A stretch of 64,000 nucleotides of DNA, taken from Phyllosticta citribraziliensis (taxonomy: Eukaryota). Both the position numbers and the translations under genes were made by a program. Below, piece after piece: positions 1 through 18,300 of the stretch (position 1 is its first letter; each line of letters begins with the position of its first letter). The notes beneath the pieces are model-generated. The model was not told the origin of the DNA. It made no database searches and was given only the letters and a program-made list of their open reading frames with translations. The stretch lies in contig NW_027117343.1 of assembly GCF_038025025.1 (NCBI RefSeq), positions 1,860,001 through 1,924,000 of the forward strand, in the 5' to 3' direction.

Positions 1-3000
1 ATGTCGGCGCTGCTTGCTTTATGACGGGGGAAATGAGAGGATAAGGGGGTTCTGGTAGAACGTCTGACACAGCAAGACGGGCGGCAGCCACCGCAGTCAA
101 ATCGTCTGGAAGGAGTTGTAGACGCCGACAGTTTTCGATTGGTTGGCTTCTTGTGGTGAGCCGAGCTTTCCAGCGCTGATGTCGTGGATGAGGGAGCAGA
201 TTCAACGGGAGAGTGTAGGGGGTTTTATACGCTGAAGGAGGGCTAGCGCTTGTGATTTCCTACTTCTAGCGCGCGGGGGCAATGCGGCCCATGTAACGGC
301 TGGAGCCCCTGACAGAGGAGTAGTATTTAAGTAGGAACTGACCTCGCACTTCTCTCACCAGTTGCGGATGCAGTGCCTTGGCTTTCCAAAAGCTGAGGAG
401 AACTGCCAGCGACACTGTTGCAGAAGCTCAAAAGGATCCCCACTGTTGGTTTCCGTCGGCTGCCTTTTCTCTCTTTCCTTTCTCTTCCTGGGGAGTCAGA
501 GGACGCAGCAACAGACAGCAATCCAGGGGTTCCATGGCACAGTGTCGCCGTCCACTAGTAAGGACACATGATGAACACTATCGCCGTCGAGGTATAAATC
601 TGCGTCTCCACGCGAAGAGTATTAGGAAAAAGGTTATGAAAAGAGCAACCACCACAGCCAAAGAGTGATCCTTTTCGGTAATGGAGCCACCAACAGTGGC
701 ATAATAGCCTCGTGGTTGCCACACAGCTCAGCGCGCTGGAATGACAAGAAGAAGGACATAGCTAAGAGCAAGAAGCTTCTTTTATACCTTAAAGGAGAGA
801 GGAGACGTGGGCAAAGTCATATGTGCTGTGTCTTTATGATGCAGTGGCTTCCATTTCCTGCTTCGGCGCGACTGTGTCGACGTGTCGACGTGGCTGGCGT
901 TGCATGTGACACCCCTACCTGCTGCCTTGCCTGGTACTCTTGCCCCTGAAGCTGCAGAGTATAAAAGCTGCCTACCCCCTTCTCAACGGATTCCTGCATC
1001 AAACGGACAGAGTTACAAAGCTTCGAAGGATGATAAGGTAGTCGGACTGTCTGTCTTTGTTTGGTAGGGACTCAACGACGCGACTGGTGCGCTCTGTTCT
1101 CCTCTTCTTGCCATCCTTTTGCATGCGCAATTCGCCATGGCGAAGCTTCAATTTGGCAGTGTTTTTGAGTATTCAAGGACTGCGGCGAGGCACCGTAATG
1201 ATGTCTAGCTGCGTTGAAGAACCACGACAATTTCCCAACATCGAAAGCAATTGGAGGAGAGGAATGTGTTTTCACCTCTGCACAAAGCCTCCACACAAAA
1301 CAGTCGTCATTCCGCTGAAGATGTTCGCCGACAGTCACAAAAGTCTTCGCGAGGGAAGTCATTAAGAGCTGAGAGGCTTGCAGACAAGTCAGCAAACAGA
1401 GACAGAAGGAGTAGTTTTATACCTTATGCGAGGGCGTAGAATGCGCTGGGCGCGCAACTCTGCCCTTGTGACTCTGAGCTTCTCGCCATTGCACGTGTCG
1501 TCCTTCAGGGCATCTGGCAGCGTCTTGAGGCCTATTTAAACCCACTCCTCCCTGTGCTAGAAATCTTTTGTCAACCAGACAGTCGGACATTGAGTGACTT
1601 CGCAAAGATTCGTACAGATGGACAACTGCTTGCCTTTATCAATCGCAAAATTTGTATGTTTCTTTTCTTCCGCTTCTTGTTTGTTGAGCCAGTGAGTCAT
1701 TCTGACAACTCGATTTCGTTGTGTTTTGGCGCGATGAACGGTCGCCGCATCAACAGGTAATGATGGATAGTGACGTAGCAAAAAATAGTGCTGGTAATTG
1801 AGTGGGGATTTGCAGAGGACGATGCAAGTAAATCCCTCCTCTCCAAAAGCACAAGAGAAGTAACAACTTTGATTTTTCCGAGCGAGTTACGAGTCTCAAA
1901 AGCCGCTCCTTGCGCCGTTGACTGAGTGAGGAGAGGGCAGTTTTATACGCAACCAAGGGCGCTGAAGAAGTCCGCACGCGCATTGCTCCTTGTGAGTCGT
2001 GACTGCCTGTGCTCAGGGGCAATTGATGATCGGGGGCGTCACACGTGTCACTCACCTCCTGGGTATTTAGGTCGTCAACTCCACCGGCAGACATTTTTTG
2101 ACTACCAGAACGACGACAGGATCTTGAGTTTCACAGGACAGCCTGACTGCCTGTTCACCACCAAGACCCAAGCTCTCATACACTGTCTCTATGCTCCTTT
2201 CCTTGCCCTCACTTCGCGGAACCGGGCGGCGAGAAAAGATGGAGTTTCTTTTGTGTTTTGCGCTTTTTTGCGTTGAGTGGCCGCAGCGAGGACCGATAAT
2301 AGTGGATGGCGGGACAATGGGGTGACGGTGGCCTCTAGGAACTTCGAGAAATCAGGAGCAGAGCCTCAGCTCGAATTTTCTGCAAAAAGCGCCGAAGGAA
2401 GTCGAAATTGGCTGGATCCTTCGCCAACGGTGCAGCTTTGCGATCTGCAACGTGTGCAGAACTTGCAAGAGGAGAAGCAGGAGTTTTATACGCGGCCGGA
2501 GGCGCCAAAGAGATGTGTGTGCGTTATTCCTCATCACAGGTATCTTTCAGGGGCACGTAGACGGGGCGCAGTCGCACGTATCACCTCTCTCCTGGAGTAT
2601 TTAAACGCTCCAGTTCGACCTGCAAACTCCTTCCGTCAACCAGACATGATTCTTCTTTTCTTTCTAGATTCTACCCTGAGCATTTCAGACTGTCTGCAAG
2701 ACTCACGCAATGAGCAATACTGTTGTGCTCTGCCTACGTCTGCCTCCTTATCTTTTCTATGACAGCAGTCAGGCAAGTCAATGGGGTCATCGCTTTGCGT
2801 CGTGGTGCGGCGAACGGTCGCAGCAATGACGGACAAAGATGAACAGCGGCGGAGTAGGAATATGGCCACATTCCTGGCCTCGAAGCGAAAAAGGGACGAA
2901 AATGCTACCTGCCCTTGCCCGCAATACAATGTTTGAACGAACTTGCGGCCAGGCAGTAGGATTTCCCCTGGTGCTTTGTCGCACAATCTGGGAGGTGTGC

Positions 3001-5200
3001 AGGCAGTATAGCAAGGAGGAAAGTTGCACTGACTTGAGCTCAGCAATTTATACCTTATGAGAGTGGAGTCGTAGTGGACGATACATGCCCATCTTGTCAT
3101 TTTCGCTTCTGATTCTCGACCTCCTGACCGCTGAGCGCCGATTCTCGGTATGATGATCGCTTGCCGCACGTGTCTAGTTCTTGAAGCTTGTGACTATCGG
3201 CCGGAGAGGTATATAAAGCGTGTCTTGAGTCCTTGGGTTTGCTTAATCAACGAGAGAGTGTTGACCTTCCGCGGTATTCACGATTTTTTTCGCTGTCCCG
3301 AAAAGTTTTGAGGGTCGCGATGACTCTGGGACCCGTTTGTCCCCATATTTCTTCTTCCAATCCCTGCTAGTCGCCGAGATGGCTGCTGAAGAGGCAAAGT
3401 TCCACCTTTTTTATAATGCAGTGTTGAAGCAAAGACAAGTGACGACGGGCAGCGTCGTGAGAGGAATATGATGCCGGTTTCCAACCTGGTAGGAATTCCG
3501 CGTGGAGAGACAAAGCACCCGCCCCCCGAAAGTGCAATCCAGAATAGATTTGGCTCCCAACAATAGGTATTCGACCTCTCTAGCCCTTAGTGAAAGGGCC
3601 AAGGTGTTCTGTTTGCCAGGACATGGACGCTGGGGAGAGCGAGACAGGGCGGTGGTCGTGGTTTTTATACGTGGCGGAGGCGGAGATGGGGCTTGCAGAA
3701 TGTTGACAGGCTTCAGAGTTTCGCGTGTGGCATGTGTCTGCGGGGCCCGTGACGGCCACCTGCCTCAGAGATATCCTGACTGCGCGTCTCCTGTGGCTAT
3801 CTAAAGCGCGCCTGTATTCTTTGATTAGCTTCCTTCAGCTGCAAAAGACATGTTGAATTCCAAAATTCTTCGCCGAAATCCACGAGTACTGAAAGCACCC
3901 CCTGGAGATCCTACTGGTGGGTCCTGTGTCTTTTCGGTCCTTTGAAATTGCCAGGAGGCTCTTAGCTTCTAGAATGCGCTGGAGAGCATTGTCGGATGTT
4001 GATGATGGCTGATGTGACGGAAGCATGATGCCTTGTTGTCCAGACAAGCGATACTGTGGACAGTCGCTCTGGTTGCGAATCGAGATGAGGAAGAAGTACG
4101 GGTAGGATGAGAAACACCGGACCCTCCACAGCAGTGTAATACACGATGACATCTCTGAACAGAGCGTTAGCAATCGCTGCAAAGGCGAATAGTTAGAGAG
4201 AGGGAGAGAAAGGACGGGGGGTTTTATGCCCACAGACGAAGGAGCCGTAGAACGAGATTTGTTGCCAGTCGTGTGACTATCTTGGATTTCGATCTCGTGA
4301 ATATCTGACTTGTGCGTTCGAAAGAATTGCGTCCCACTCGAATGTCTGTCCTTACTCACAAGGAAATTTTGGGCTACAGATGTGCAATGGAGACAGTACG
4401 ACAAATTACGATCAAACGCACTTGGACCTTTTGCCTGTTCCGCGCTCTCTCAAGTGATTGACAGAAAATTTGAAGGTTTTCTTGACGTAGCAGTATCGTG
4501 TGTCGATGACGGACAATGTGCCGAAGGAAAAATGCTGTTCCTCTCCACACGCAATGTTGCAAGCACTCGCCATCCCAGGAAATCGACAGCAAGAAGTCAG
4601 ACCGCCATGCCCAGTGCCCTCCAAGCCCACCGCAGTCTCGATCCTCAGCACAGCCGCTCACAGCAGCCAGTAAGTTCAGTCGATAGTAGTCGGCAAAGCA
4701 GTGCGCCTGCAATCAGTGTCGAAAAAGTGAAGAGGAGAAGACGCAGCGAGCGGCGCGCGTTTTATCCTAGAGCAGGCGGCAGACGTAGAACACGCGATGC
4801 GGTCAGCGGGTTGTCCTCGTGCCTAGCCTTTCCTGTTGCCTTGCCACATGCTGAAGGGGAGTCGGTGCGCTGTCTCCTGACGGGTGGTCGGTGGGTCGGC
4901 TTGTGAACGTCGGGCTCGTGAAAGCCTGGCTGCCGCCAGCGGAACGTGTACTTAATCCCTGGAGTGCGATGTTTCTCTCATAGAGTCGCAGAGAGTCGAT
5001 TCCGCAACCATGGACACAACTTACCCTCTTGCTTGACTGTCTCTGGGGTTGGTGTGCACCTCTCCAACCTTTCCATCCTACCTACTTTGTCCTCCTGTCT
5101 GGATGGCAAGCAGTGGTGGGCGACCGTCGACGAGTGTTTGCGCTTTGTTGTCTTTTAGATTCCGATACTCTGCATCATTGAGCATTATGCCACGATGAAG
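1..5200. repeat. Degenerate tandem array (>=9 units, ~570 bp period) of divergent TATA-box pairs, apparently non-coding; open at left window edge
   Basis: Minus-strand TATA boxes (+ strand TTTTATAC-like) at 223, 780, 1415, 1941, 2484, 3046, 3663, 4222, 4760. Plus-strand TATA-like boxes at 324, 960, 1533, 2064, 2598, 3210, 3798, 4949. Exact k-mers shared between units at matching offsets: GTCAACCAGACA 1570/2635, GAACGGTCGC 1736/2812, ATGACGGACAA 2826/4506, TTTATACCTTATG 1416/3047, CGCCGACAGT 123/1326. Confidence 0.8.
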
Positions 5201-6268
5201 GGGCCTGGCGAGATAAAGAAGCGGTGCTGCCGTTGGCGGTGTTCGAGTCCAAAGTCGACTCGAATGCGGCGAATGGATAACTTCCAGGTCTCTCTTGCTG
5301 ACTTTGAAGGTCGTTGAAGGGCTTTGGCTCTCATTTGAGCGCTGTGTTGTTCCTGTTCATTGCGCACGTCGTCTTTTCGGGCGGTGTGTCGGCCAGCTGT
5401 CTCGTTGGAGATTTCTCCCCTTGAGGCGCAACTCAGAGAAGTGCAAGGGTTTCGGCGCTGAGAGAGGCTCCGTTGATTCTGTCCAAGCGGTGATAATGAT
5501 GGATTGAGCTGTTGTCGCGTTGCTGGAAAGCGGCATGCGTGGGGACGCCTCGTTGTGCTGTAGATGGTAGTCAGCCAGCGGGTTCTCCCTACTCTTTCAG
5601 TGTCCATACCCGCCAACCTCAACCCCACGAACGCTTTCTGAATAGCATGCGTCGATAGTACTTATCACCCGTCATCGAATGCGCCCTAAATGCGTACTCT
5701 TCTTTGCTGGTGTCGATGTTGGCGTGCAAGTGATGCTGAGTCGACTCGGCGACGCGAGGCGGGAGCCAGTGACCCGCCGTGACGAGCACAAAACAACCTG
5801 CTCTTCTCCTGAACCTCTCGATCACCTCTCCAGACACGTACCCGCAACGTCTTCCTTTCATCCTGGCAAGGTCTTGTCCAGCGTTGAGCTTCTGTGAGTA
5901 AAAACGGGGTTGGATCTTGACCCGCTCGCTCACGTCACGCTCCCAGCTGCTGCCCACAACCTAAACTCCACGTCTGACGGCCAATCGCTCACGATATTGA
6001 GCCGGCAACCCACCCTGGAGCAGTTTCATCTTCATTGCCAACAGAGAGGAGCTCTAGAAGCCTCATCGCCCAGCTTTCATCCGGATTCGGCGAGGTATGG
6101 GGCTCCAACGCTGCAGTCCCAGAGTCTCGCGTCCAGAATGGCATAACTGACAAGTGTTCCAGCAGCAGAAGAGACAGCAAGAAGAGCGGTCGTCCGTCTA
6201 GTTCTCTTCTCGAATACCGTTGCGTAGCAGACGAAGTCTCCCAGCTCTTGAAAACTCTGTCTTTCGCC

Positions 6269-7447
6269 ATGCCATCCTTCGGCGTTCGAAACGGGCGCTT
6301 CGTTGTTGTCAAAGAGGAGGCCGATATCAACGCCCACCGCCACGCTCTTCCTCCTCCTCCTCCTCCTCCTCTTCCACCCACCCCAGCTCAGCATACACCA
6401 GGCGATCCACAGCTCAAGCCCTCTCTCATCGTCAAGTTGAAGCTGCCCGCCCAGCGTCCCCAACCCAGCAAGGTCGCCAAGCTCCACATACGTCCAAGCA
6501 ACATCGTCGGCGTCGCCAACCCCAGCAACGCAGAGCCCACGCCCAGGCAAATCCGAGCACGTATCGAACTTCTTGAACGACACAACGCCGAGTTAGCCAG
6601 ACAGAGAGCAGCTGCCGCCGCCGCTCAGCCCCAGCAATCCAGCTCGCCAGCCAGACCACCACCACCCCAACGCACTCTGCCTCCCCCAATGTCGCCAGCA
6701 CGCAAGCGCCAGTCGAAGCGCAAGGGCGCGAAGAAGGGCAAGGCTGCTTCTACGCCGCAGGACGAGACGACAACGCGTCCGGAGACGGCTGCCTCGCCTG
6801 CGTCGCCCGCTCAGTCGTCCACTGCCTCCACGGCCACCGGCCACCGCTCGTCGACGCCTCTGGAGCTTCACCCCACACCCACGTCGAACGCTCCCCGTGC
6901 CCGCACGCCCGTCGCGCCCACCATCCGGGCTGAGGCGCAAGCTCTCGGCGTCGGAGCTCGCGAGCTCCAGCAGGCGCAGCAGACCCACGACGCGGAGACC
7001 ATCGAGGCCGCGCTCATACTCATGGCCATCTCGCGTGGCGCGCCGCTCGGCTATGGAGCGTTCAACCCACTGGCGCAGTACGCCGTCACGGCTGCTCCCA
7101 GCCCGCCCGCCAACATGCCGCAGCTCACGACTGCTCCCACCGCCGGCCCCAGCACCACCACCATCGCCGCCGCCAGCACCTCCGCCGCCACCCCCGTCCC
7201 CACCACCACGGCGCAGCCCACAACTGCTCCCACCGCGCCCCCACCCCCCGAGACCAAAGACGCCTTCGCGGCGCGCTTTGGCCGCCTGCACGCGGGCCAG
7301 GAGGAGAAGGCGCGCGAGCAGGCGGAGTGGGACGAGCGGGTCGAGAAGGGCAAGAAGGAGTTCGACGAGAAGTACCCCGGCGCAGATGAGGAGTTGATGG
7401 CGTGGAGGGAGGAGAAGAGGCCGAGGGGTTGGAGGTATGAGGAGTAG
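6269..7447 (+). CDS. Hypothetical Pro/Ala/Thr-rich, probably disordered nuclear protein (~392 aa)
   Basis: Long ORF with strong GC3 bias from ATG 6269 (GCCATG context; MPSFGVRNGRF...) to TAG 7447. Basic NLS-like RKRQSKRKGAKKGK; short helical motif ETIEAALILMAISRG. Confidence 0.75.
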   Translation: MPSFGVRNGRFVVVKEEADINAHRHALPPPPPPPLPPTPAQHTPGDPQLKPSLIVKLKLPAQRPQPSKVAKLHIRPSNIVGVANPSNAEPTPRQIRARIELLERHNAELARQRAAAAAAQPQQSSSPARPPPPQRTLPPPMSPARKRQSKRKGAKKGKAASTPQDETTTRPETAASPASPAQSSTASTATGHRSSTPLELHPTPTSNAPRARTPVAPTIRAEAQALGVGARELQQAQQTHDAETIEAALILMAISRGAPLGYGAFNPLAQYAVTAAPSPPANMPQLTTAPTAGPSTTTIAAASTSAATPVPTTTAQPTTAPTAPPPPETKDAFAARFGRLHAGQEEKAREQAEWDERVEKGKKEFDEKYPGADEELMAWREEKRPRGWRYEE

Positions 7448-7627
7448 GGGGTGAGGGGGGGTGTTGTACATTATTTGTAAAGTAGAAACTGAGATATGGG
7501 ATGGGATGGATGGGATGGGACGACGCGTAGACGAAGTAATGAAGGAACTCTCCACTCTAAAAAAGGTCTCTCAAACACTGAATAACTTACTGACTCACTT
7601 TGACCAACCCTACATACACATCCCCCC

Positions 7628-9626
7628 TCACGCCGCCCCCTCCGTGTAATCCGCCCCCCTCTTCGTACTCGCGCTCCCCGCCTCGCCCCTCGCAAACCGA
7701 CTCGCCTCCTCCCGCCCCACGCGCCGCAGCGGGCGATACACCGGCTCCCACATCTGCTCCTGGATCCAAGCATCCAACTCGGCATCATCCCCCGGGATGC
7801 CGCGCTGCGTCGCCAAGCCCTCGGCCTGCGCGGCGCGGATGACGGCGTGCGCGATGCGCACGCTGATGTCGCGGACGGCCGTGACGTCGGGGAGCAGGGC
7901 GCGCTCGCGGGGGGAGCCCTTGGCCGCGGGATCGAGCGCGGGTGCTTGCTGCGCCAGCGCGTTGGTGGCGGCGACGAGGAGGCCGGGCGAGAGGCGCGAC
8001 GCGCGACACAGCACGGCGCCGAGGCCGATGCCGGGGAAGGTGGTCGAGTTGTTGCACTCGGCGACCTCAAACTGGCGGCCGTCGTGGGTGACGGGGGCGA
8101 AGGGGCTGCCGGTGGCGACGAGGCAGCGGCCGGCGGTCCACGCGAACAGGTCGGCGGGCGTCGCTTCGTGCAGCTTGGTCGGGTTGCTGAGCGGGAAGAT
8201 GATGGGGCGCGCGACGTGGGCGGCCATTTCGCGCACGACGGCTTCGGTGAAGGCGCCTGGCTGCGTCGACGTGCCGATGAGGACGTGCGGCTTGACGGCT
8301 TTGATGACTGACAGCAAGTCGCCGTGCGGTTTGTCCGCCCATTCGGCGTCGTCGCGGGCGTAGCTGAGTTGGGCGGGGGTGAGATCCTTTTGCTTGGACT
8401 TGAGGAGGAGGCCGGGCTTGTCGATGCACCTGGGACGAGGTCAGCAGTCACTAAAAGGGTAGATTAAAGGAGTTAGTGAGTGGCGTACCAGACCTGCTTG
8501 CCGGCGTCCTCCTTGGAGCGTGACGTGTTGATGGCGATGGCGTCTTTGATCTGGTCAGCAATGCCCGTTCCCGCGGTGCCAGAGCCAAAGAGGACGATCC
8601 GCAGGTCCTCGTACTTGACGTCCGCCACCTTCAGCGCCGCCATGACGGCTGCGAGCGTGACACATCCCGTTCCCTGCACGTCGTCGTTGAAGCAGGCAAA
8701 CTGCGGCTGGTACTTGTCCAGAATGCGGCGCGCGTTGTGCAGGCCGAAGTCTTCAAAGTGGATGTAGGCGTTGGGGTATTTCTCTCGCGCAGCGCGGATG
8801 AACTTGTCGACAAACTCGTCGTACTCCTTGCCGCGCGCCCGGGGCCGACGCAGACCCAGATACAGGTCGTCCTTGAGAAGCTCCTCGTTGTTCGTCCCGC
8901 AGTCCAAGACGACGGGCAGCGTCCGCGCGGGATGGATGCCCGCACAAAGCGTGTAGATGACGAGCTTGGCAACAGAGATGAGAATGCCGCCAACGCCCTG
9001 ATCGCCAATCCCCAGAATCTGCTCGCCGTCGCTGACGACAATCAGGTCGATTTCGTCGGGCGAGCCAAACTGGTTCAAGTCATCGGCGATGCGGTCCTGG
9101 TCCTCGACGTTCAGAAAGCAGCCCTCGGGCCGCCTGAACAGGCGCGAGTAGTTGGCGATGGCGTCGCCCTCGGTCGGCGTGTAGATGATGCTGAACATTT
9201 CCTTGAGGTGGTCGTGGATGAGGCGGTAGTACAGCACGGCATTCTGCTCCTTCATGCTCGTCATGAACGTGTTCTTGGCCAGGTCATCGCTGCGGCTGCG
9301 GTACTGCTGGTACGCGCGCTTGACTTGGTCGTCCAGAGTCTGCACGTTGGGCGGGAGCAGCCCGTGCAGCTTGAATTCGGTGCGCTCCTCGGGAGTGAAG
9401 GCTGAGCCTTTGTTGAAGTATGGGTCGTTGAGGAGAGCGGATCCCTACGCAATGTTAGTATCGAAAGTGGATGAGGAGTGAGAATGGCTTGGGAGGGATG
9501 GGATTCTCTTGTGCGGATGCTTGCTCTTTGGAGAAGACAAACACAGGTCCTGTCCAAACTTACCGTCAACGCGCATTCTATAGGTCCAGAAGTGGACAAA
9601 GGCAGCTTTCCAAACTTGGAAGACAT
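7628..9626 (-). CDS. Malic enzyme (malate dehydrogenase, decarboxylating; probably NAD-dependent); exons 9626-9564, 9444-8489, 8429-7628
   Basis: Motifs NKGSAFT, IIYTPTEG, VSDGEQILGIGDQG, HFEDF, FNDDVQGTG, GSGTAGTGIA, IFPLSNPT, ECNNSTTFPGIGLG. GT-AG introns 9563-9445 (branch TACTAAC) and 8488-8430 restore the frame. Confidence 0.95.
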
Positions 9627-10225
9627 GACGACGAAGCTCTGGTGTTGAAGATGTACAGAGGTTGCAGTAGATGAAGAAACGCAATGCAAAAGGACGGGAT
9701 CCAGGGGCAGCGAGGCGGGGTCGGAGCAAGGAAGAAGCTCCCAGAGCGGTGGTTTGTTCGAAAGGCTTCCTGGACAGCACCTCGAAGAGCAGGGGACCGT
9801 GAGGCGACGCGCGCTTCAATCAAGCTTTATCAATGTGATGCGCTGGGTACATTATTGCATGTCCGGGTACCGATGCCGCGCAGGTCGAGTTACGTTGGCT
9901 ATAGCTCCAGAAGCTCCCCGCCATGACGTAGCGACGTCCCGCATAACGACGCGCCCTGCTTTTGCGCCGACAAGAGCAGACCGAGTTATCGCACGCTTCC
10001 ATTCGTGCCCATGTTACATGCAAGGAATCAAGCCTTGGGCTGACAGCTAAGCTCATCGTCACATGCACCGCCGTTTTTCCCGGCGCCGACCGCTGTCACT
10101 TTTGCGCTGCCGCTCTGCAGCACAGCGTTTGGCGCTTCTGATTGGACGTCTTGCTGCAAACTATGCGCCTGTGTTGACATGGACGAATGGCAGAATAAAA
10201 AATCCACACACCTGAAAAAGCTTGC

Positions 10226-12241
10226 TCACGCCGTATTCCTCCCAATGCCCTCTTTGTACCGCGCCAGCGCCCTCTCCCTGCACGACTTGTGGTCGACCAT
10301 GGGCTCCGGGTACCCGGCCTTCCGCGCCTTTTTGCCCTCGCCTCTGCCGTACGGATCATGAATCGCCTTGCCCTTGACGTCCCTCAGCTCGGGGACCCAC
10401 TTGCGGATGTACTCGCCGTCGGGGTCGAATTTCTCGCTCTGCAGCAGCGGGTTGAAGATGCGGAAGTACGGCTGCGGATCGACGCCCGTCGACGCGCTGA
10501 AGCCCCACCCGCCGTTGTTGGACGCAAAGTCGCCGTCGATGAGGTGCTCCATGAAGTAGCGCTCGCCCATGCGCCAGTCGAGCAGCAGGTCCTTGGCCAG
10601 GAACGACGCCACGATCATCCGGCACCGGTTGTGCATGTACGCCATGTCGTTCATCTGGCGCACCGCGGCGTCGACAATCGGGAAGCCCGTCTGCCCCTCG
10701 CTCCAGCGCTTGAAGTGGTCGTCGTTGTATTCCCACTCCACGTTGGTGTACTCGTATTTGAATGGCTTGAACATGCTGTCGCACTGTCAGATTTGGCGTC
10801 AGAAAAACACTCTGCCAGACACTCACCAGATATACGGCCAATTGGCCAGGACGTGCTTGTAAAAGTCCCGCCATGCCACTTCGCTGATCCAGCACATGAT
10901 GCCCGCGTTTCCGGCGTCCAGCTTGTTTGACCCGTTCTTGTCCCGAGCCATGCGCACGCTCGTTCGCGCAGCCAGAGTCCCAGCAGAATGGTGCACACTG
11001 ACCTTCGCCGTCCCATCCACGGCTGGCAGATTTCGCTTGTCCTTGTATGGCTTAATTCTGGATTCCAGAAACTTGTCCAGACGCGCATGTGCCTCGTGTT
11101 CGCCTGCCGGCCACAGCGACGCAAACTTCTTCTTGTCTTCGGCCGAGAGACGTTTGTTTGGCGGCGCCTCTGGTATGGAGCTGTCAAACAAATACTTGAA
11201 CTTCTTCCGCGCTTCTGGTGGATTTTTTCCTGGAGATTCCCATTCATCGAGGAGGTTGGGGTGCTTGTGGATATGTGCCATCCACGATCGGTACCACGGG
11301 CTGTAGACGGCGTACTGCTTGCCAGCGCCCGTGCTTAACGCTCCAGGCGGCACGACGACATCGTCGTGTACAGCGGAGAAGTTGATACCCTTCTCAAGAC
11401 ACGACTTTGTGAGCTTCGTCTCGCGTCGCAGCTCATCCACCTCATACTCAATGTTGCAAAAGAGGTGCTTCGCGCCCCACTCCTCACACTTGCCCACCAA
11501 CCACGCCGACACATTCTTCCTCTTGTCAACCGTCTCCACCAACAACGGCACATCCAACGCCGCCAAATCGCTCTTCAGCACCTCCAGCGTCCGCAGATCG
11601 AAGTCGACGCGCATGGCCGACGTAAAATGCGCCTGGTAGTCCTGCGGGCTGACCACAAAGACGCACACCAACGGCACCTTGGCGTCCCGCGCCTTCTTCG
11701 CCGCCAAACTCAACCCCTTGTTGTCCTTGGTCCGCAAGTCGCGCTTGAACCAATGCACCACGGCGTCGCCGACGCCTATCTTCTCGCGCGCCTTCTGCGT
11801 CGCCGCGATCGTCTTCTCCAGCTCCTCGATCGGCCGCGGGATTTCGTTGTTGTTGTACTGCGCGCACCGCTCGTTGCTCATCTCGGCCGGGTAGAACTCG
11901 CGCTGCACGATGCCGACGCGCTCCTCGGCGCGCGCGTGGTCAGAGGTGGCCGGTGACGGCTCTTTCTTTACGCCATTGGCGCTGCCGCTCGACGGCTCCG
12001 TCTTGATGGCCTTGCGGGGCGTCGACGCGGCGGAGCGTTTATTAGATGCGGAGCCCGCCGAGTCGGCGTACCCGGACGACGCGGGCGCTTTGCGTTTGTC
12101 GGGCATGGCGAGTGGTGTAGCACAGCTAAATTGTCTGGCGGAGATGGATGAGCAGAGAGCTGGACTGCAGCGAGCTGTCCTCGTCGTTACTGGAACCAAA
12201 AAAGATCGAGTCAAGGGCGAGAGGTGGTGGAAGACGCGCAT
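10226..12241 (-). CDS. phr1: Class I CPD DNA photolyase; exons 12241-10827 and 10775-10226
   Basis: HWFKRDLR, WISEVAWRDFY, GQTGFPIVDAA, YMHNRCRMIVASFLAKDLL, DGDFASNNGGW, YFRIFNP. A 51-bp GT-AG intron at 10826-10776 joins WPYIC-MFKPF. Confidence 0.96.
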
Positions 12242-12376
12242 GAGGAGACGACGCGTTTGTGAGGAGAGGAAGAGACGATGTTGTGCACAAGGGTTTCAGC
12301 TTTTGATGAAGCTCCGCTGAGGGCTCCATCGTCATGCCAGGAACAAAGGCGCGCATGGTGGCTTCTACCCCTGTTG

Positions 12377-12425
12377 GATCTGATCTGTAACGCGCGACAT
12401 CGATCTGCGGGCGAGATCGAGCGGT
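12377..12425. promoter_or_regulatory. Cluster of GATC/GATCGA repeats upstream of photolyase, candidate light-response (White Collar complex) element
   Basis: GGATCTGATCT...CATCGATCT...AGATCGAG lies 135-185 bp upstream of the photolyase ATG. Repeated GATC/GATCGA motifs are the known WCC binding element in Neurospora; the assignment here is inference. Confidence 0.35.
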
Positions 12426-12428
12426 GGA

Positions 12429-15318
12429 TGAATCGCGTAATCCGCCCCACTGCACGTGCTCAATACCAAGTGGATACTGCAAACTCTGAGTATTTAGTAA
12501 TCATAAGGTAATAAATAAACAGATAAACTAGCTTTATAATCACCTAATTCACTCCTATATAAATAGCTAAGATAGTAGATAGTTAAATAGATAAGATAAT
12601 ATCTTCCCCTTATTATATAATTAATTATATATATAGACGCCCTACTAAATCTATAATTATTATAAGCCTAGAATTACTAAAATATACTAAATAGATAAAT
12701 TAGAACCTCTTAGAAGGCCCCTCTCCTTTAGTATATATTTAGTACTATACCTAATTAGAAAAATTCTATAGAATCTTTAGAGTTTTAAACCTAGACCCTA
12801 GTTCTATAAAAACTAAGATCTTTCCTATTAAGGTAATTTTAAGAACTCTCTTAGTATTTTCTATATAATATAGAGAGAACTCTTAGAACTTACTTTAAAA
12901 ATAACTATACTACTAAAAGTTATCCTTAACTCTACTAAAGATTAGGATAAATAGCTTAATTAGACTATTACTCTTCTTAATTAGTATAAACTTATTTAGT
13001 ATATATACCTCTATATAATAGGTAAAGCTTACCCTAAGCCTAAGAAACTAGTCTATACTAGTCTTAATCTTACTAAACCTAAGGGTATAGCTAAATAAAA
13101 GATATATATAGCTATAATTCTAATCTATAAGGATTTTACTATAAAGAAGCTTACTATTATTAATAGAATTATAGATATATACTCTTATATTACTAGATAA
13201 TAAGCCTATAGAAAGGAAACCCTTAAAGCTAAACTCTAAGCTCTTAAAGCTTACTTTACCCTAACTAGTAACTATAGGGAAATAAGTCTCCTAAAGGAGC
13301 TTTATAAGCTTTAAAAAGGTTCTAGGACTTAGGACCCTATTAATTAGGTAAGTAAGTAGAAGTATCTTTAAGAATAAATAGTAGATATAAAGCTCCTAGA
13401 GAAGGATAGAATAATAGACTACTTTATCTAAGCTATTTATAATACTAGAGAGTAAGAAGTAGCTAGCTCTCTTTAAATAAGAAAGGATCTTATCTCTAAC
13501 TTTAATCTTCCTAAGGTAATTAATATCTACTTATTATATAAAAGGGACTTTATCTCTACTAATACTTACTCTAATAATATAGCTATTCTCTAAGAAGTTT
13601 CTAGCTAAAATAAAGACTCCTCTAAGCTAATAAATATAGACTCTATAAGGCTAACTAAACCTAAGAAGCCCTATAGGGACCTAATAGATAAATCTAAGAA
13701 GAAATAGTATCTAATACGCGCCTCCTATAATATTATTAACCTATATAAATATAAACCTATAGTAGAGCATACTAAGGAGGAGAAGAACTAACTAGCCTAC
13801 TATATTAATAAAGTTAAGACTAAATAGATAGACTATATATCTAAAAGGTTTAAAGACTAAGAGGTACTTAAGCTTATTAAGACTCCTATAACCTCTATAC
13901 TATATAAAGAAAACGCGTATATTACTTAAAGCTACTTAGTTTAAATAGACCTAGATAAGGGATAGATCTTAGATATAGGCTTAGACCTATATATTATTAA
14001 CTATTACTCCTAGATAAACTTCTAACTAATAAAGCTCCTATCCTATAAGGATGTTAATATAGAGAGTAGAACTATTAGTATTATAGCCTATAGATATATT
14101 AAACTCTATCTATAAGATATAAATAGCCTCCCCTAGAACCTAATCCTTTATAATATTACTTATATCCTAGACTTTTATATTAATATTATCTCTAAAGGAC
14201 GCCTTAAAAGGGTAGGGTTTATCTAGGACTCTAAAGAGGATATAATCTTTTAAAATAATAAAGTACTACTATATCTTATATATTCTAGAGGCTATATTCT
14301 ATACTTCTAAGTAGATACTCCTACTTAGCTACTTCTATAAATCCTTTATTAGCTAGCTAATAAGTAAGGAAAACCTCTTCTAGTAGACTTAGTTCTATAA
14401 CTCTAGAAGTAATAAGCCTTTACTTTAATTATAAAGGATCTTAAAATAATAACTCTCTAAGATTAATACTAGCCTTAAGTTTATATAGATAAAACTATAC
14501 CCTTTATATTAGTAATAGCTTAAAATAGTAATAATTAGACTTATACTCTTCCCTTATAAGCCTAGTATATACTCCTTAGCTATATTAGCTAAGAGTAAAT
14601 TAGTTAGCTTAAGGATAATATTAAAGGTATTTCTCTTATAACTCTCTTAGATAATATTCTAAGGATATATAAGTATAAGACCTATATAAGATCTAAGAGT
14701 ATAATTACTAATAATAAATATATAATAGCTTATCTTCCTACTCCTTAAGAAGAGATTATAGTAGATATAATATACTTTACCCTAGCCTATAATAGAGACC
14801 TCTTCTTATTCTATACCTATAACCTAGATACTAGCACCTACTTTACTACCTCTTATCTAGCTAATAATAGCTAGTACTAGCTTAAAATCTAGGATAAGCT
14901 AGTATCCTTTATCTATACTCTAAGTAGAAATATTTATATTTAGTATATAGATAATAAACCTAAGGTAGGCCTTATATTTAACTTAATACTCCTTTAAAAT
15001 AGTACTTAGATTAAATAAATAGTACTATACACCTTAGTTTAAGACCTAGCTAAACGCGCTAGAGGGGTGATTATTTAGATAGTATACTTAATAAGGCTTT
15101 ATACTAGTCTTCTAGAGGACCTCTAGCTAGAAATTTATATAGCTACTATATATCTTATTAACTATACTCTAATATAGCGCCTTTACTAGAAGACTCTATT
15201 TAAGATAGCTACTAGTTATAAACTAAACCTTACTTATATTTACTTATACAGCTATAAGGCCTATATTTATAAAATAGGTAAAAGTAAACTATATAAAATC
15301 TATAAACTAGAGCTAAGA
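12429..15318 (+). mobile_element. Ty1/Copia retrotransposon relic: 5' LTR (12429-12659) plus gag, protease and integrase; interrupted at 15318
   Basis: LTR begins TGAATCGCG and is directly repeated at 44242-44472. TTATAAGCC (PBS-like) follows the LTR. De-RIPed WILDTGSDLH protease motif at 13963, followed by integrase (~14750-15300), i.e. Copia domain order. Confidence 0.8.
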
Positions 15319-18300
15319 TATTAGGCCTATACCTATATAAGGTTTAGTCTACTAGAATCCTACCTAGTAAAAAGTAAGTATATAACTATATACTTACTTA
15401 GTAGGCTAAATAATTAGCCTACTATAACTACTTCTCTATCTTCTCTCTTACTCTACTTCTCCTTTTCTCCTTACCTTAGACTTTTAGTTAGCTAAATATA
15501 GTATTTACCTCTTTAAGCCTTATATAAGTCTAAGGTCTCTTTAACTTTACCTAATAACCTTACTACTATATTTAAAGTAGCCCCTACTTCCTATTTTAGA
15601 AAACTACCCTACTAATTAGTATCTAGAATACTATATTTTTTAAAGCCTCTAGCTCCTATCCTTATTACTCTATAGAGTACTTATACTATACCCCTATTAT
15701 ATACTCTTAATTAGTTTTATCCTAGGCTTCCTCTACTACTAATACTTTAGTAGACCCTACTTAAAATACTTTAAATAAACTAGCCCCCCTAACCTCTAAT
15801 ATACTTAAGCTTAATATTAATAAAGCTAAGGTAGTAGCCTCTAACTACCTACTCTTTACTAATAAATAAGGACCTTAACTAGATAAGGGTAAAGGCCCTT
15901 TTACTATATAACTAGATATAAACCTAGTTAATATCCTACTCCCTAGTTTAGAACCTATTAGTATTAATAATAATAGTAACTCCTTATTTAATTATACTAC
16001 TATATCTATTTTTTATCCTAGCTTAAACCTTACTAGCCTCTCTATCTATAATAGAGGAGTCTACTATTTATTCCCCTTAAAGTAGGAGTCTCTTTATACC
16101 TTTAAGAATTTTATCTCTAAAACTCTAAATACTACCTCCTCCCTATTCTTATTTCTCTAGAACCTTATTACTAACTACTATTAGATACTCTACTATACCT
16201 CCTCCTCTAGAACCTCTTTAGCTACTATTAAAGAAATAGTAACTTTTAAATAACTCTAGGCCTCCTATAATAGTATAAAGAATATTCTTAATAAGCTTAG
16301 AAAAAAGAACTTTAGTCTTAGCTATACTATTAATAGACTCTATACTAGGATAGGAAGAAGGAATACTACTATACTAGCCTAAAAAGTAGATTACTAAGCT
16401 CTCTTTAAAGAGATCTAAATACTAGAAATAGAGGTTACCTCCTTATAGAACTAGCTTATTAATAAAGTTACTAATATTCCCTATATTAAAGTTATTAGTA
16501 ATAATAAAGACCTTTCTCCTAGCTATTTAACCTAAGTACCTTACTTTACTACTTTTTAAGAACCTATAAACTAAGCCCCTACTAGTTAAGTAACTACTAC
16601 CTATATTCTAAACTAGGACTATAAAGAAACCTCTTTTCTCTATAAGGACTCTACTACTACCTAGATTATCCTACTAAAGTCCTTCTAGAAATCTAGTATA
16701 AACCTATTAGAGAAGTTTAATAGTACTAACCCTAATAAGTATATCTAATAGTACTTTATTATTAAAATAAAACTAGAAGTAGATACCCCCCTCTACTCTA
16801 TAGAGAAGAGAAGGATACTTTATATCCTCTACTTCCTTAATAACCCCCTCTTTACCTCTATATAAGAATAGTTCTCTTATTATAATTATAAGGGCTACCT
16901 TATTTCCCTCCCTAACTTCTTTTATAAAATTAAATACTAGTTAGGTACCTCTAACCTAGTTAAGAGAGCCTATATAGAACTCTACTCTATCTACTAGAGA
17001 GGAGATAAAAATACCTCCTAGTTTTATATAAGGCTTCTTACCCTTTAGTTCTAAGCTAGGTATATAGAGAATAAATATCTCTAAAGTTTTATCTATTCTC
17101 TCTATCCCTCTCTCTCTTACTATATCCTCTATCTAATCTTTACCTAGACTTTTAATACCCTTAAGATCCTCTAAAATATTAAAAGGAATATACTTAGTAT
17201 TAATATCTACTAATCTTACTCCTAGTCCTTATACTAGTAAAGCTAGCTAGCTAGAAATAACCCCTCTTATCCTATAACTTACTCCTTAGTCCTAATTACT
17301 AGTAGCCCCTCTAGCCCTAAATAGAGGCCTACTACTATAAAACCTCTAGATTAGACTAGAGTCTAGTATAAGCCTAAGCTATTCCCTAGGAAGCTTAATC
17401 TAACTAGCTATATAAAGCTTACTACTTAAGACTACTACTTCTACTACTAGGGCTCTAGATACTATACTAGTAATCCTATTTACCTTACCTAAGACCCTAA
17501 CCCTTACCCTACTTATCTAAATCTTATAGATATTAGCTCTTCTAATAATTCCTCTACTAATAAGGAGATTACTACTAACCCTAAATTAAAAGATTAAACC
17601 TAAAGGATAGTTACCTTCTAGGTTCTTAGCTAGTATAGCTTATATCTCTCTATTCCTTCTTTACTAAATAAGATTTAACTTATAGATTACTATCTTATAA
17701 GATTTTAATACTAGATATTACCTAACTCTAAATTAGAGGCTACCTAGTCTTTTACTCCTTAATAGATAGTTCCCCTATAAAGATCCTACTTAATAGTAGT
17801 ACTAAAGTAAATATAATTAATAAAAGTTATATATATAAATATTATATTAATACTTTTCTACTCTAGTTACTTATAAAGCTCCTTAATACTAATAGGTTAA
17901 TTAACTCTATCCTTAAATATATTATACTAGTAAACCTAGCCCTTAGTAATTATATTAGCTAGGTCTTCTATTATATTATAACTATCCTATATATTCCCCT
18001 TATTATTAGGGACCCTTAGCTCTCTAAATATAATACTACTACTAATTATAAATAGTACTCTATTACCCTCTCCTCTAAGGATTATATCTATACTAGTTAC
18101 CTTACTAAAGGAAAACTAGTCTAAGTCTTTACTATAGATACTCTTCTATTATAGGAGGATAAGGAGTAGTCTACTTTTAATATAAAGTTTATTAGTACTA
18201 CCTTCTTCTACTAACTTATCTATAAATATAACTATAACTCTAGTATCTTCTTCCCTACTAACTCTATTATCTAACTCTACTCTACTATAACTAATACTAT

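Follow-up and report, generated by a model that had tools for sequence, protein, structure and literature searches.

A periodic array of diverged, apparently non-coding units with back-to-back TATA-type boxes in Phyllosticta citribraziliensis

We have examined the left end of a 64,000-nucleotide stretch of Phyllosticta citribraziliensis DNA (contig NW_027117343.1; the whole stretch is referred to as the window), in which a preliminary description made from the sequence alone had noted TATA boxes recurring on both strands. A head-to-tail array of at least nine units, with a mean unit length of ~567 bp, is observed at positions 1 to ~5300. The units are homologous, their anatomy is periodic, RNA contigs cover them, and neither a coding nor a structural RNA signal was detected in the searches described below. 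Tentatively, and with a probability of about 0.45, we favour the reading that the array consists of short non-coding units transcribed by RNA polymerase II (Pol II) from bidirectional promoters that are maintained by selection.

Anatomy and divergence of the array

Six perfect copies of the octamer GTATAAAA are observed on the minus strand, at 223, 780, 1415, 1941, 2484 and 3663, and copies with one mismatch at 3046, 4222 and 4760, so that the nine boxes of the preliminary description, six perfect and three degenerate, were all found again. Searched in its plus-strand form, TTTTATAC, with up to one mismatch, the box occurs 10 times within 1-5300 compared with 0.96 +/- 1.0 (maximum 6) in 1000 dinucleotide shuffles; one of these matches, at 3409, is off-register and the remaining nine are in register. 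The eight gaps between the nine in-register boxes measure 526-635 bp (mean 567, coefficient of variation 0.068), a regularity equalled by none of 200,000 random nine-point sets. Periodicity against shuffled DNA had been set beforehand as a test of the array, and it is significant. Across the entire window 5.5 perfect copies of GTATAAAA are expected and 11 are present, a count reached in none of 100 shuffles. Position 1 falls within a unit, placing the left end of the array beyond the window. A CT-rich tract lies immediately downstream of the minus-strand box in eight of the nine units, and judged from these letters the minus box is arranged like a TATA element with a pyrimidine-rich start region. 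The ATG-free minus-strand leaders noted earlier are also present: no ATG occurs in the 202 nt of leader left of 223, and the first minus-strand ATG lies 171 nt from box 1941 and 285 nt from box 2484. Depletion of ATG on the minus strand of the array as a whole (38 observed, 53 expected, z = -2.6) is no stronger than several other trinucleotide deviations, and the same holds for depletion of stops.

Plus-strand TATA-like boxes are present at all eight positions claimed for them (324, 960, 1533, 2064, 2598, 3210, 3798 and 4949), those at 2064, 3798 and 4949 being degenerate; unit 8 carries no notable box, with a weak one at 4299. The consensus TATWTAAR occurs four times in the ~32 kb of the window that is free of repeat-induced point mutation (RIP), every copy lying on the plus strand and inside the array. 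In the better-kept units a CACGTG/ACGTGTC box is followed by a TATTTAA-type TATA box and then by a TCAACCAGACA-like CA start, located 37-39 nt past the plus TATA in units 2, 3, 5 and 6, with similar motifs in units 4 and 7. On the plus strand ACGTGTC is found four times in the array, 21-80 nt upstream of the plus TATA, and seven copies are present across the window compared with 1.6 expected. In Aspergillus nidulans promoters TATA is located 30-45 bp before the start, which is usually CA and lies in pyrimidine-rich sequence, and CACGTG is most frequent near -70 (PMC4046813). The plus module shows tight fungal promoter geometry because it matches the TATA-to-start spacing and the CACGTG box in that account, and the plus-strand box would thus fit a filamentous-fungal core promoter of the tight TATA type. 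A minus TATA is separated from the plus TATA of its unit by 77-189 bp, and 408-461 bp lie between a plus TATA and the next minus TATA, in agreement with the ~410-460 bp previously given for the facing boxes. Within the body between facing boxes, length is kept, as is a central ATGATGG-like core with a T-rich patch upstream of it; the remaining sequence is near-random. The back-to-back core promoter anatomy originally proposed is therefore upheld as a regular array whose plus box matches the A. nidulans geometry (PMC4046813), and the anatomy as a whole is real and statistically solid.

That the units are homologous, highly diverged and share short motifs at kept offsets, as had been claimed, is borne out by alignment. 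Mean column identity is 39% in a MAFFT alignment of ten pieces and 57% in the four best units (units 2-5), among which pairwise identity is 45-52%. Leave-one-out nhmmer profiles recovered five of nine units, units 2-5 at near full length and unit 7 in part (first 208 nt). Blastn between units returned a single match and Tandem Repeats Finder did not detect the array, indicating that the units are very diverged. Without regard to position, 576 8-mers are shared by at least six units compared with 169 in shuffles; since chance alone can take a single k-mer to 7-9 units, no individual motif was judged by this sharing. With ~50% of sites identical, ~0.4% of copies would be expected to retain the 8-mer intact, whereas GTATAAAA is perfect in six of nine and one letter off in three, which argues for constraint on the box. 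A profile search of the whole window detected no additional units outside 223-4906, the array fading after ~5300, and no similarity of the unit bodies to anything else in the window. On alignment evidence the units are true but very old tandem duplicates.

The array is not RIPed and its guanine plus cytosine (GC) content is close to 50%, as first described: GC is 0.517, TpA/ApT is 0.67 and (CpA+TpG)/(ApC+GpT) is 1.27, far from the values of 1.88 and 0.12 in the RIP block at 12.8-44.6 kb. A RIP-mutated repeat or transposon relic was rejected on these dinucleotide indices, and no transposase or reverse transcriptase domain was found in a Pfam scan of the open reading frames (ORFs). The purine tract before TTTTATAC was also considered as the polypurine tract of a long terminal repeat; no TG..CA ends and no remnants of reverse transcriptase or integrase were found.

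No reading frame is common to the units, as previously stated: first-ATG ORFs on either strand have nothing in common among units, and all-against-all blastp of the array ORFs yielded only matches of 11-39 aa that mirror the DNA motifs. In 8 of 10 units the conserved core includes an ATG, and the ORFs that it opens measure 7-73 aa and have no common sequence. Among 93 ORFs of at least 45 aa, 11 of which were examined first, none exceeded the Pfam cut-off; the sole sub-threshold match scored 17.4 bits against a cut-off of 25, the chance level for 93 queries. The alternative that the units are decayed members of a known protein family thus found no support in Pfam. A collection of 15 billion proteins contains none of the 10 longest ATG ORFs. 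Lipopeptide pheromone genes were ruled out, as a CaaX series was not found, only three scattered, non-periodic matches. Residues in ORFs of at least 100 aa amount to 1009 compared with 377 in shuffles on the plus strand and 1069 compared with 638 on the minus strand.

Searches for RNA identity were similarly negative. Rfam at E <= 10 gave four weak matches, none near threshold. A cluster of box C/D small nucleolar RNAs was rejected, the ATGATGG core being accompanied by neither a D box nor a stem and the Rfam threshold not being reached. Folding of the bodies relative to shuffles gave z values of -2.7 to +2.7, above -2 in 14 of 16 strand-bodies, and RNAalifold predicted 0 pairs at the core; a structured non-coding RNA or microRNA-like hairpin precursor was set aside, as folding energies are not below those of shuffles and pairs are not conserved. 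RNA polymerase III units (TATA ... TTTT) were rejected because the bodies contain several runs of four or more T.

Transcription of the array and its interpretation

Expression was followed in two small runs, X1 and X2, available as unstranded contigs on 1-16000. Both skip four CT..AC (minus-strand GT..AG) introns, including those of the malic-enzyme and photolyase genes, and both have zero depth over the part of the RIP block covered here, more than 3 kb (12817-16000); X1 and X2 therefore behave as RNA. X1 covers every 534-bp bin of the array at a depth of 2.6-30, compared with 168 at 4202-7155 and 386 at 7740-12402; from right to left the bins read 30, 17, 6.3, 3.6, 4.0, 2.6, 10.1 and 6.3. 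X2 covers the array from ~2500 rightwards; parts of the array without cover were given no weight. No joints are observed in 1-4200, where the contigs are unspliced. Two array contigs among the pieces listed, 3137-3527 (391 nt) and 3615-4157 (543 nt), each include a plus TATA, and the latter also crosses the minus box at 3663, ending 48 nt beyond it. Beside box 4222, contigs end at 4202 in X1 and at 4264 in X2. The six loose ends listed for X1 carry adaptor letters of a single polarity, as might be expected of a stranded library made from RNA of the minus strand, but so few observations were given no weight. Contig breaks fall 20-110 nt downstream, in the minus sense, of boxes 4222 and 3663, which are 2 of 2 cases among the 16/36 contig pieces listed. 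The 391- and 543-nt contigs and the spliced RNA of at least 1.4 kb described below are transcripts of more than 200 nt without a credible ORF, as long non-coding RNAs (lncRNAs) are defined. Taken together, the contigs hint at RNAs of the minus strand that begin shortly past one GTATAAAA and end shortly past the following copy, rather than at plus-only units. Paired ncRNAs of ~200 nt, one of the products initially suggested, are not favoured, as the contigs measure 391 and 543 nt and cross the core, the plus TATA and, in one case, the next minus TATA.

Each unit would, in the reading we favour, be headed by a compact bidirectional promoter of 77-189 bp, with GTATAAAA and a CT-rich start region on the minus side and CACGTG/ACGTGTC, TATA and a TCAACCAGACA-like CA start on the plus side. 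We infer that both boxes are active promoters and that selection holds them while the bodies are free to drift. The transcripts in these samples would accord with minus-strand units that begin past one GTATAAAA and finish 20-50 nt beyond the following copy; in that case the box may double as a TATA element and part of the 3'-end signal of the preceding unit. The TATA-to-start spacing and the presence of CACGTG lend weight to the promoter reading. Because these RNAs are scarce and unspliced and show no conserved ORF or fold, function would more likely reside in transcription as such or in its pattern, or in lncRNAs of short lifetime, than in any conserved product. If the boxes are under selection, it is the promoters and not the transcripts that are conserved, and function would lie in the process of transcription, in the patterning of chromatin or in RNAs that act independently of their sequence, for example double-stranded RNA (dsRNA).

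A number of observations count against the favoured reading. Unstranded contigs from two small runs give neither start nor level, and their ends and breaks are those of the listed pieces. The array reaches 1-10% of the depth of its neighbours, and this cover could represent read-through from strong upstream minus-strand transcripts. The contigs run across plus TATA boxes, and activity of the plus boxes is therefore unsupported in these samples. Units 1, 6, 8 and 9 were not recovered by the leave-one-out profile and are assigned by motif position, and the evidence suggesting selection on the boxes comes from comparison within the array. Finally, the unit profile (nhmmer) found no match, nor anything similar, in 54 metagenome loci located beside malic-enzyme homologues of 44-82% protein identity, and GTATAAAA is very rare there, with four copies in the 25 loci longer than 5 kb; the metagenome loci are too distant to be counted as absence in relatives.

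A different explanation is that the array is a functionless relic of an ancient tandem duplication of a bidirectional-promoter segment, now decaying and yielding RNA by pervasive transcription or by read-through from the strong minus-strand transcripts on its right. The bodies are near saturation (45-52% identity, one inter-unit blastn match), the outer units 1, 6, 8 and 9 are degenerate, the array has a depth of 2.6-30 where its neighbours have 386 and 168, and no product of any kind can be defined. A relic would nevertheless not be expected to keep two TATA boxes, the TATA-to-start spacing and a 408-461 bp body length amid drift; array depth is non-monotonic from right to left, though contig depth is a poor measure; and recent 550-bp duplicates in a RIP-active genome should be RIPed, which the array units are not. 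We consider a relic unlikely, though well worth keeping in mind. Convergent firing is a rather less likely account, according to which the facing promoters act together and the ~430-bp bodies form dsRNA that is processed to small RNAs of variable content, in a cluster resembling Neurospora loci of dicer-independent small interfering RNAs (disiRNAs). The convergent geometry is real and regular, both boxes resemble competent core promoters in sequence, the bodies are transcribed and unspliced, and in Neurospora convergent transcription yields disiRNAs and methylation (PMC3764098). The contigs that cross plus TATA boxes are, however, more easily explained by minus-strand RNAs alone, and no target is apparent, the bodies being unlike anything else in the window. 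In a bolder form, for which the chances appear slim, the units would be autonomous mini-genes of a new type of fungal small-RNA generator, with two selected facing TATA promoters and ~430-bp bodies transcribed on both strands and diced. Its logic would be analogous to that of 21U-RNA mini-genes and animal dual-strand clusters, and if true, a promoter-defined, payload-variable small-RNA cluster would be undescribed in fungi.

The contig ends also bear on an improbable third account, in which the minus-strand GTATAAAA and its CT tract are chiefly a 3'-end signal and the array a series of back-up terminators for the strong minus-strand transcription of the malic-enzyme gene and the spliced ncRNA. 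UAUAAA-like elements act in fungal 3'-end formation. The abundant minus-strand transcript ends at 4202 in X1, 20 nt after GCATAAAA (4222-4229), and in X2 at 4264; the end of contig 3615-4157 lies 48 nt past box 3663; and depth drops ~6- to 17-fold across 4202. Termination leaves unexplained, however, the conserved plus-strand TATA/start module and the CACGTG box; nine serial terminators have no obvious use; and no poly(A) junction was seen at 4202, where only adaptor-like letters are found. Small, fast-evolving protein or peptide genes, one per unit (effector- or pheromone-like, or precursors of ribosomally synthesised and post-translationally modified peptides), are very improbable. The core ATG in 8 of 10 units, the slight excess of ORF length over shuffles and the mild depletion of minus-strand stop trinucleotides would accord with such genes, yet core-ATG ORFs lack a common sequence, none of the 93 ORFs reaches the Pfam cut-off, blastp matches are short, the CaaX series and protein-collection matches are missing, and GC is 0.52 in the array compared with 0.61-0.65 in adjoining coding DNA.

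The array presents, in nine natural replicates, a fungal promoter that is minimal and bidirectional (CACGTG with two TATA boxes and a CA start in 77-189 bp). It is also a compact test bed for the way in which TATA elements double as 3'-end signals and for the question whether convergent mini-units feed RNA silencing in Dothideomycetes. Were it a relic, it would record a rare tandem duplication spared by RIP, with heavy RIP 7 kb away.

Individual units and neighbouring sequences

At the left edge, partial unit 0 (1-222) aligns with the right half of the complete units and has a core-like ATGACGG at 21. Unit 1 (223-779) carries a minus TATA at 223-230 (GTATAAAA), a plus TATA at 323-331 and a core at ~569. 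The four best-preserved units follow. Unit 2 (780-1414; leave-one-out E = 2.6e-10) contains a minus TATA at 780-787, ACGTGTC at 880-886, a plus TATA at 959-967, an initiator (Inr)-like motif at 999-1009 and a core at 1198. In this unit a mini-repeat, (CGACGTGT) x2.9, is observed at 869-892, the ACGT-core promoter box being locally tripled, and a SNORD102-like match is located at 1246-1316 on the minus strand (28.6 bits compared with a gathering threshold of 47), restricted to this one unit, with a C-box-like AUGACGA and no CUGA D box. Unit 3 (1415-1940; E = 5.9e-13) has its minus TATA at 1415-1422, CACGTGTC at 1492-1499, plus TATA at 1532-1540, TCAACCAGACA at 1571-1581 and core at 1760. The corresponding elements of unit 4 (1941-2483; E = 1.5e-12) are a minus TATA at 1941-1948, CACGTGTC at 2042-2049, a plus TATA-like box at 2063-2071 (GTATTTAGG) and a core at ~2299 that lacks ATG; in one X1 contig the T-run that ends at 2263 is one T longer, a strain difference or an error. 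Unit 5 (2484-3045; E = 1.2e-14) comprises a minus TATA at 2484-2491, a plus TATA at 2597-2605, TCAACCAGACA at 2636-2646 and a core at ~2838.

A degenerate minus TATA (GTATAAAT, 3046-3053) opens unit 6 (3046-3662), followed by CACGTGTC at 3167-3174, a plus TATA at 3209-3217, an Inr-like motif at 3247-3257 and a core at ~3442; RNA contig 3137-3527 lies inside this unit. In unit 7 (3663-4221; E = 3e-4 over the first 208 nt), which is spanned unspliced by contig 3615-4157, the minus TATA is at 3663-3670, a plus TATA-like box (CTATCTAAA) at 3797-3805 and the core at 4002. Unit 8 (4222-4759) lies within a well-expressed transcript and retains a degenerate minus TATA (GCATAAAA, 4222-4229) and a core at 4506, with no clear plus TATA. 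Unit 9 (4760-5300) is the most degenerate, with GGATAAAA at 4760-4767, GTACTTAA at 4948-4955 and a core at ~5195; its profile match is limited to the first ~80 nt (E = 0.07 to 7.6), and the right end of the array is ill defined.

Overlying units 8 and 9 is the 3' part (4202-5609) of a spliced, ORF-poor minus-strand transcript. Its 52-nt intron at 5558-5609 reads GTATGG...CTGAC...CAG on the minus strand and is skipped, with CT..AC ends, by the X1 contig 4202-7155 (depth 168); X2 covers 4264-5482 at depth 26. The end at 4202 is 20 nt past the degenerate minus TATA at 4222. The spliced RNA of 4202-7155 contains no ATG ORF longer than 80 aa, and its ORFs are not among known proteins; it looks like an lncRNA and may run antisense into the gene at 6269-7447. 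Right of the array and upstream of the intron of this transcript, a TATA-like box (GCATTTAGG, 5683-5691) and ACGTGTC (5833-5839) are found on the minus strand, and from their sequence these may form its promoter.

The gene at 6269-7447 (plus strand) encodes a Pro/Ala-rich product for which the search gave matches in Phyllosticta only: a protein annotated in P. citribraziliensis, identical at 256/257 residues, and one of P. citrichinensis with 72% identity. The annotated P. citribraziliensis model (272 aa) leaves the open frame after residue 257, whereas the entire single-exon ORF, as far as its conserved C-terminus, is matched by the orthologue of P. citrichinensis (421 aa), suggesting that the public model may be truncated. 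In the malic-enzyme gene an X2 contig shows G>A at 8321, a strain difference or an error. The RIP block at 12800-44600 extends over ~32 kb at 26-30% GC with extreme RIP indices and begins ~7 kb from the array.

Relation to known systems

The array resembles promoters of the A. nidulans type in having TATA 37-39 nt before a CA motif, CACGTG ~60-120 nt before the start and a pyrimidine-rich start region (PMC4046813). It differs from them in the at least nine back-to-back repeats, 567 bp apart, with no gene behind. With Neurospora disiRNA loci (PMC3764098) it shares facing promoters across a short interval, which would give sense/antisense overlap; those loci are ordinary convergent gene pairs, whereas the P. 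citribraziliensis locus is an array of homologous mini-units known from sequence and unstranded contigs. The D4Z4 macrosatellite (PMC3334996) likewise consists of tandem units with promoter activity, in some cases bidirectional, and gives rise to low-level non-coding RNA, but its units are 3.3 kb, nearly identical and ORF-containing, whereas those observed here are old, diverged and Pol II-like. A literature search brought up neither this locus nor any comparable array, and the architecture may be without a described counterpart.

Tandem promoters are also found in rDNA spacers, where they serve RNA polymerase I, in contrast to the Pol II-like boxes of the array. One Pol II promoter per short unit is characteristic of trypanosomatid spliced-leader RNA genes, animal U1/U2 small nuclear RNA (snRNA) arrays and the 21U-RNA mini-genes of Caenorhabditis elegans; except for 21U, these arrays are homogenised and encode a conserved structured RNA. 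The P. citribraziliensis array is like all three in having one autonomous promoter per short unit, many in a row. It differs from spliced-leader and snRNA arrays in its 45-52% identity, in belonging to no RNA family or fold and in having two opposed promoters per unit, and, as in the 21U-RNA genes, a conserved promoter motif goes with a variable payload.

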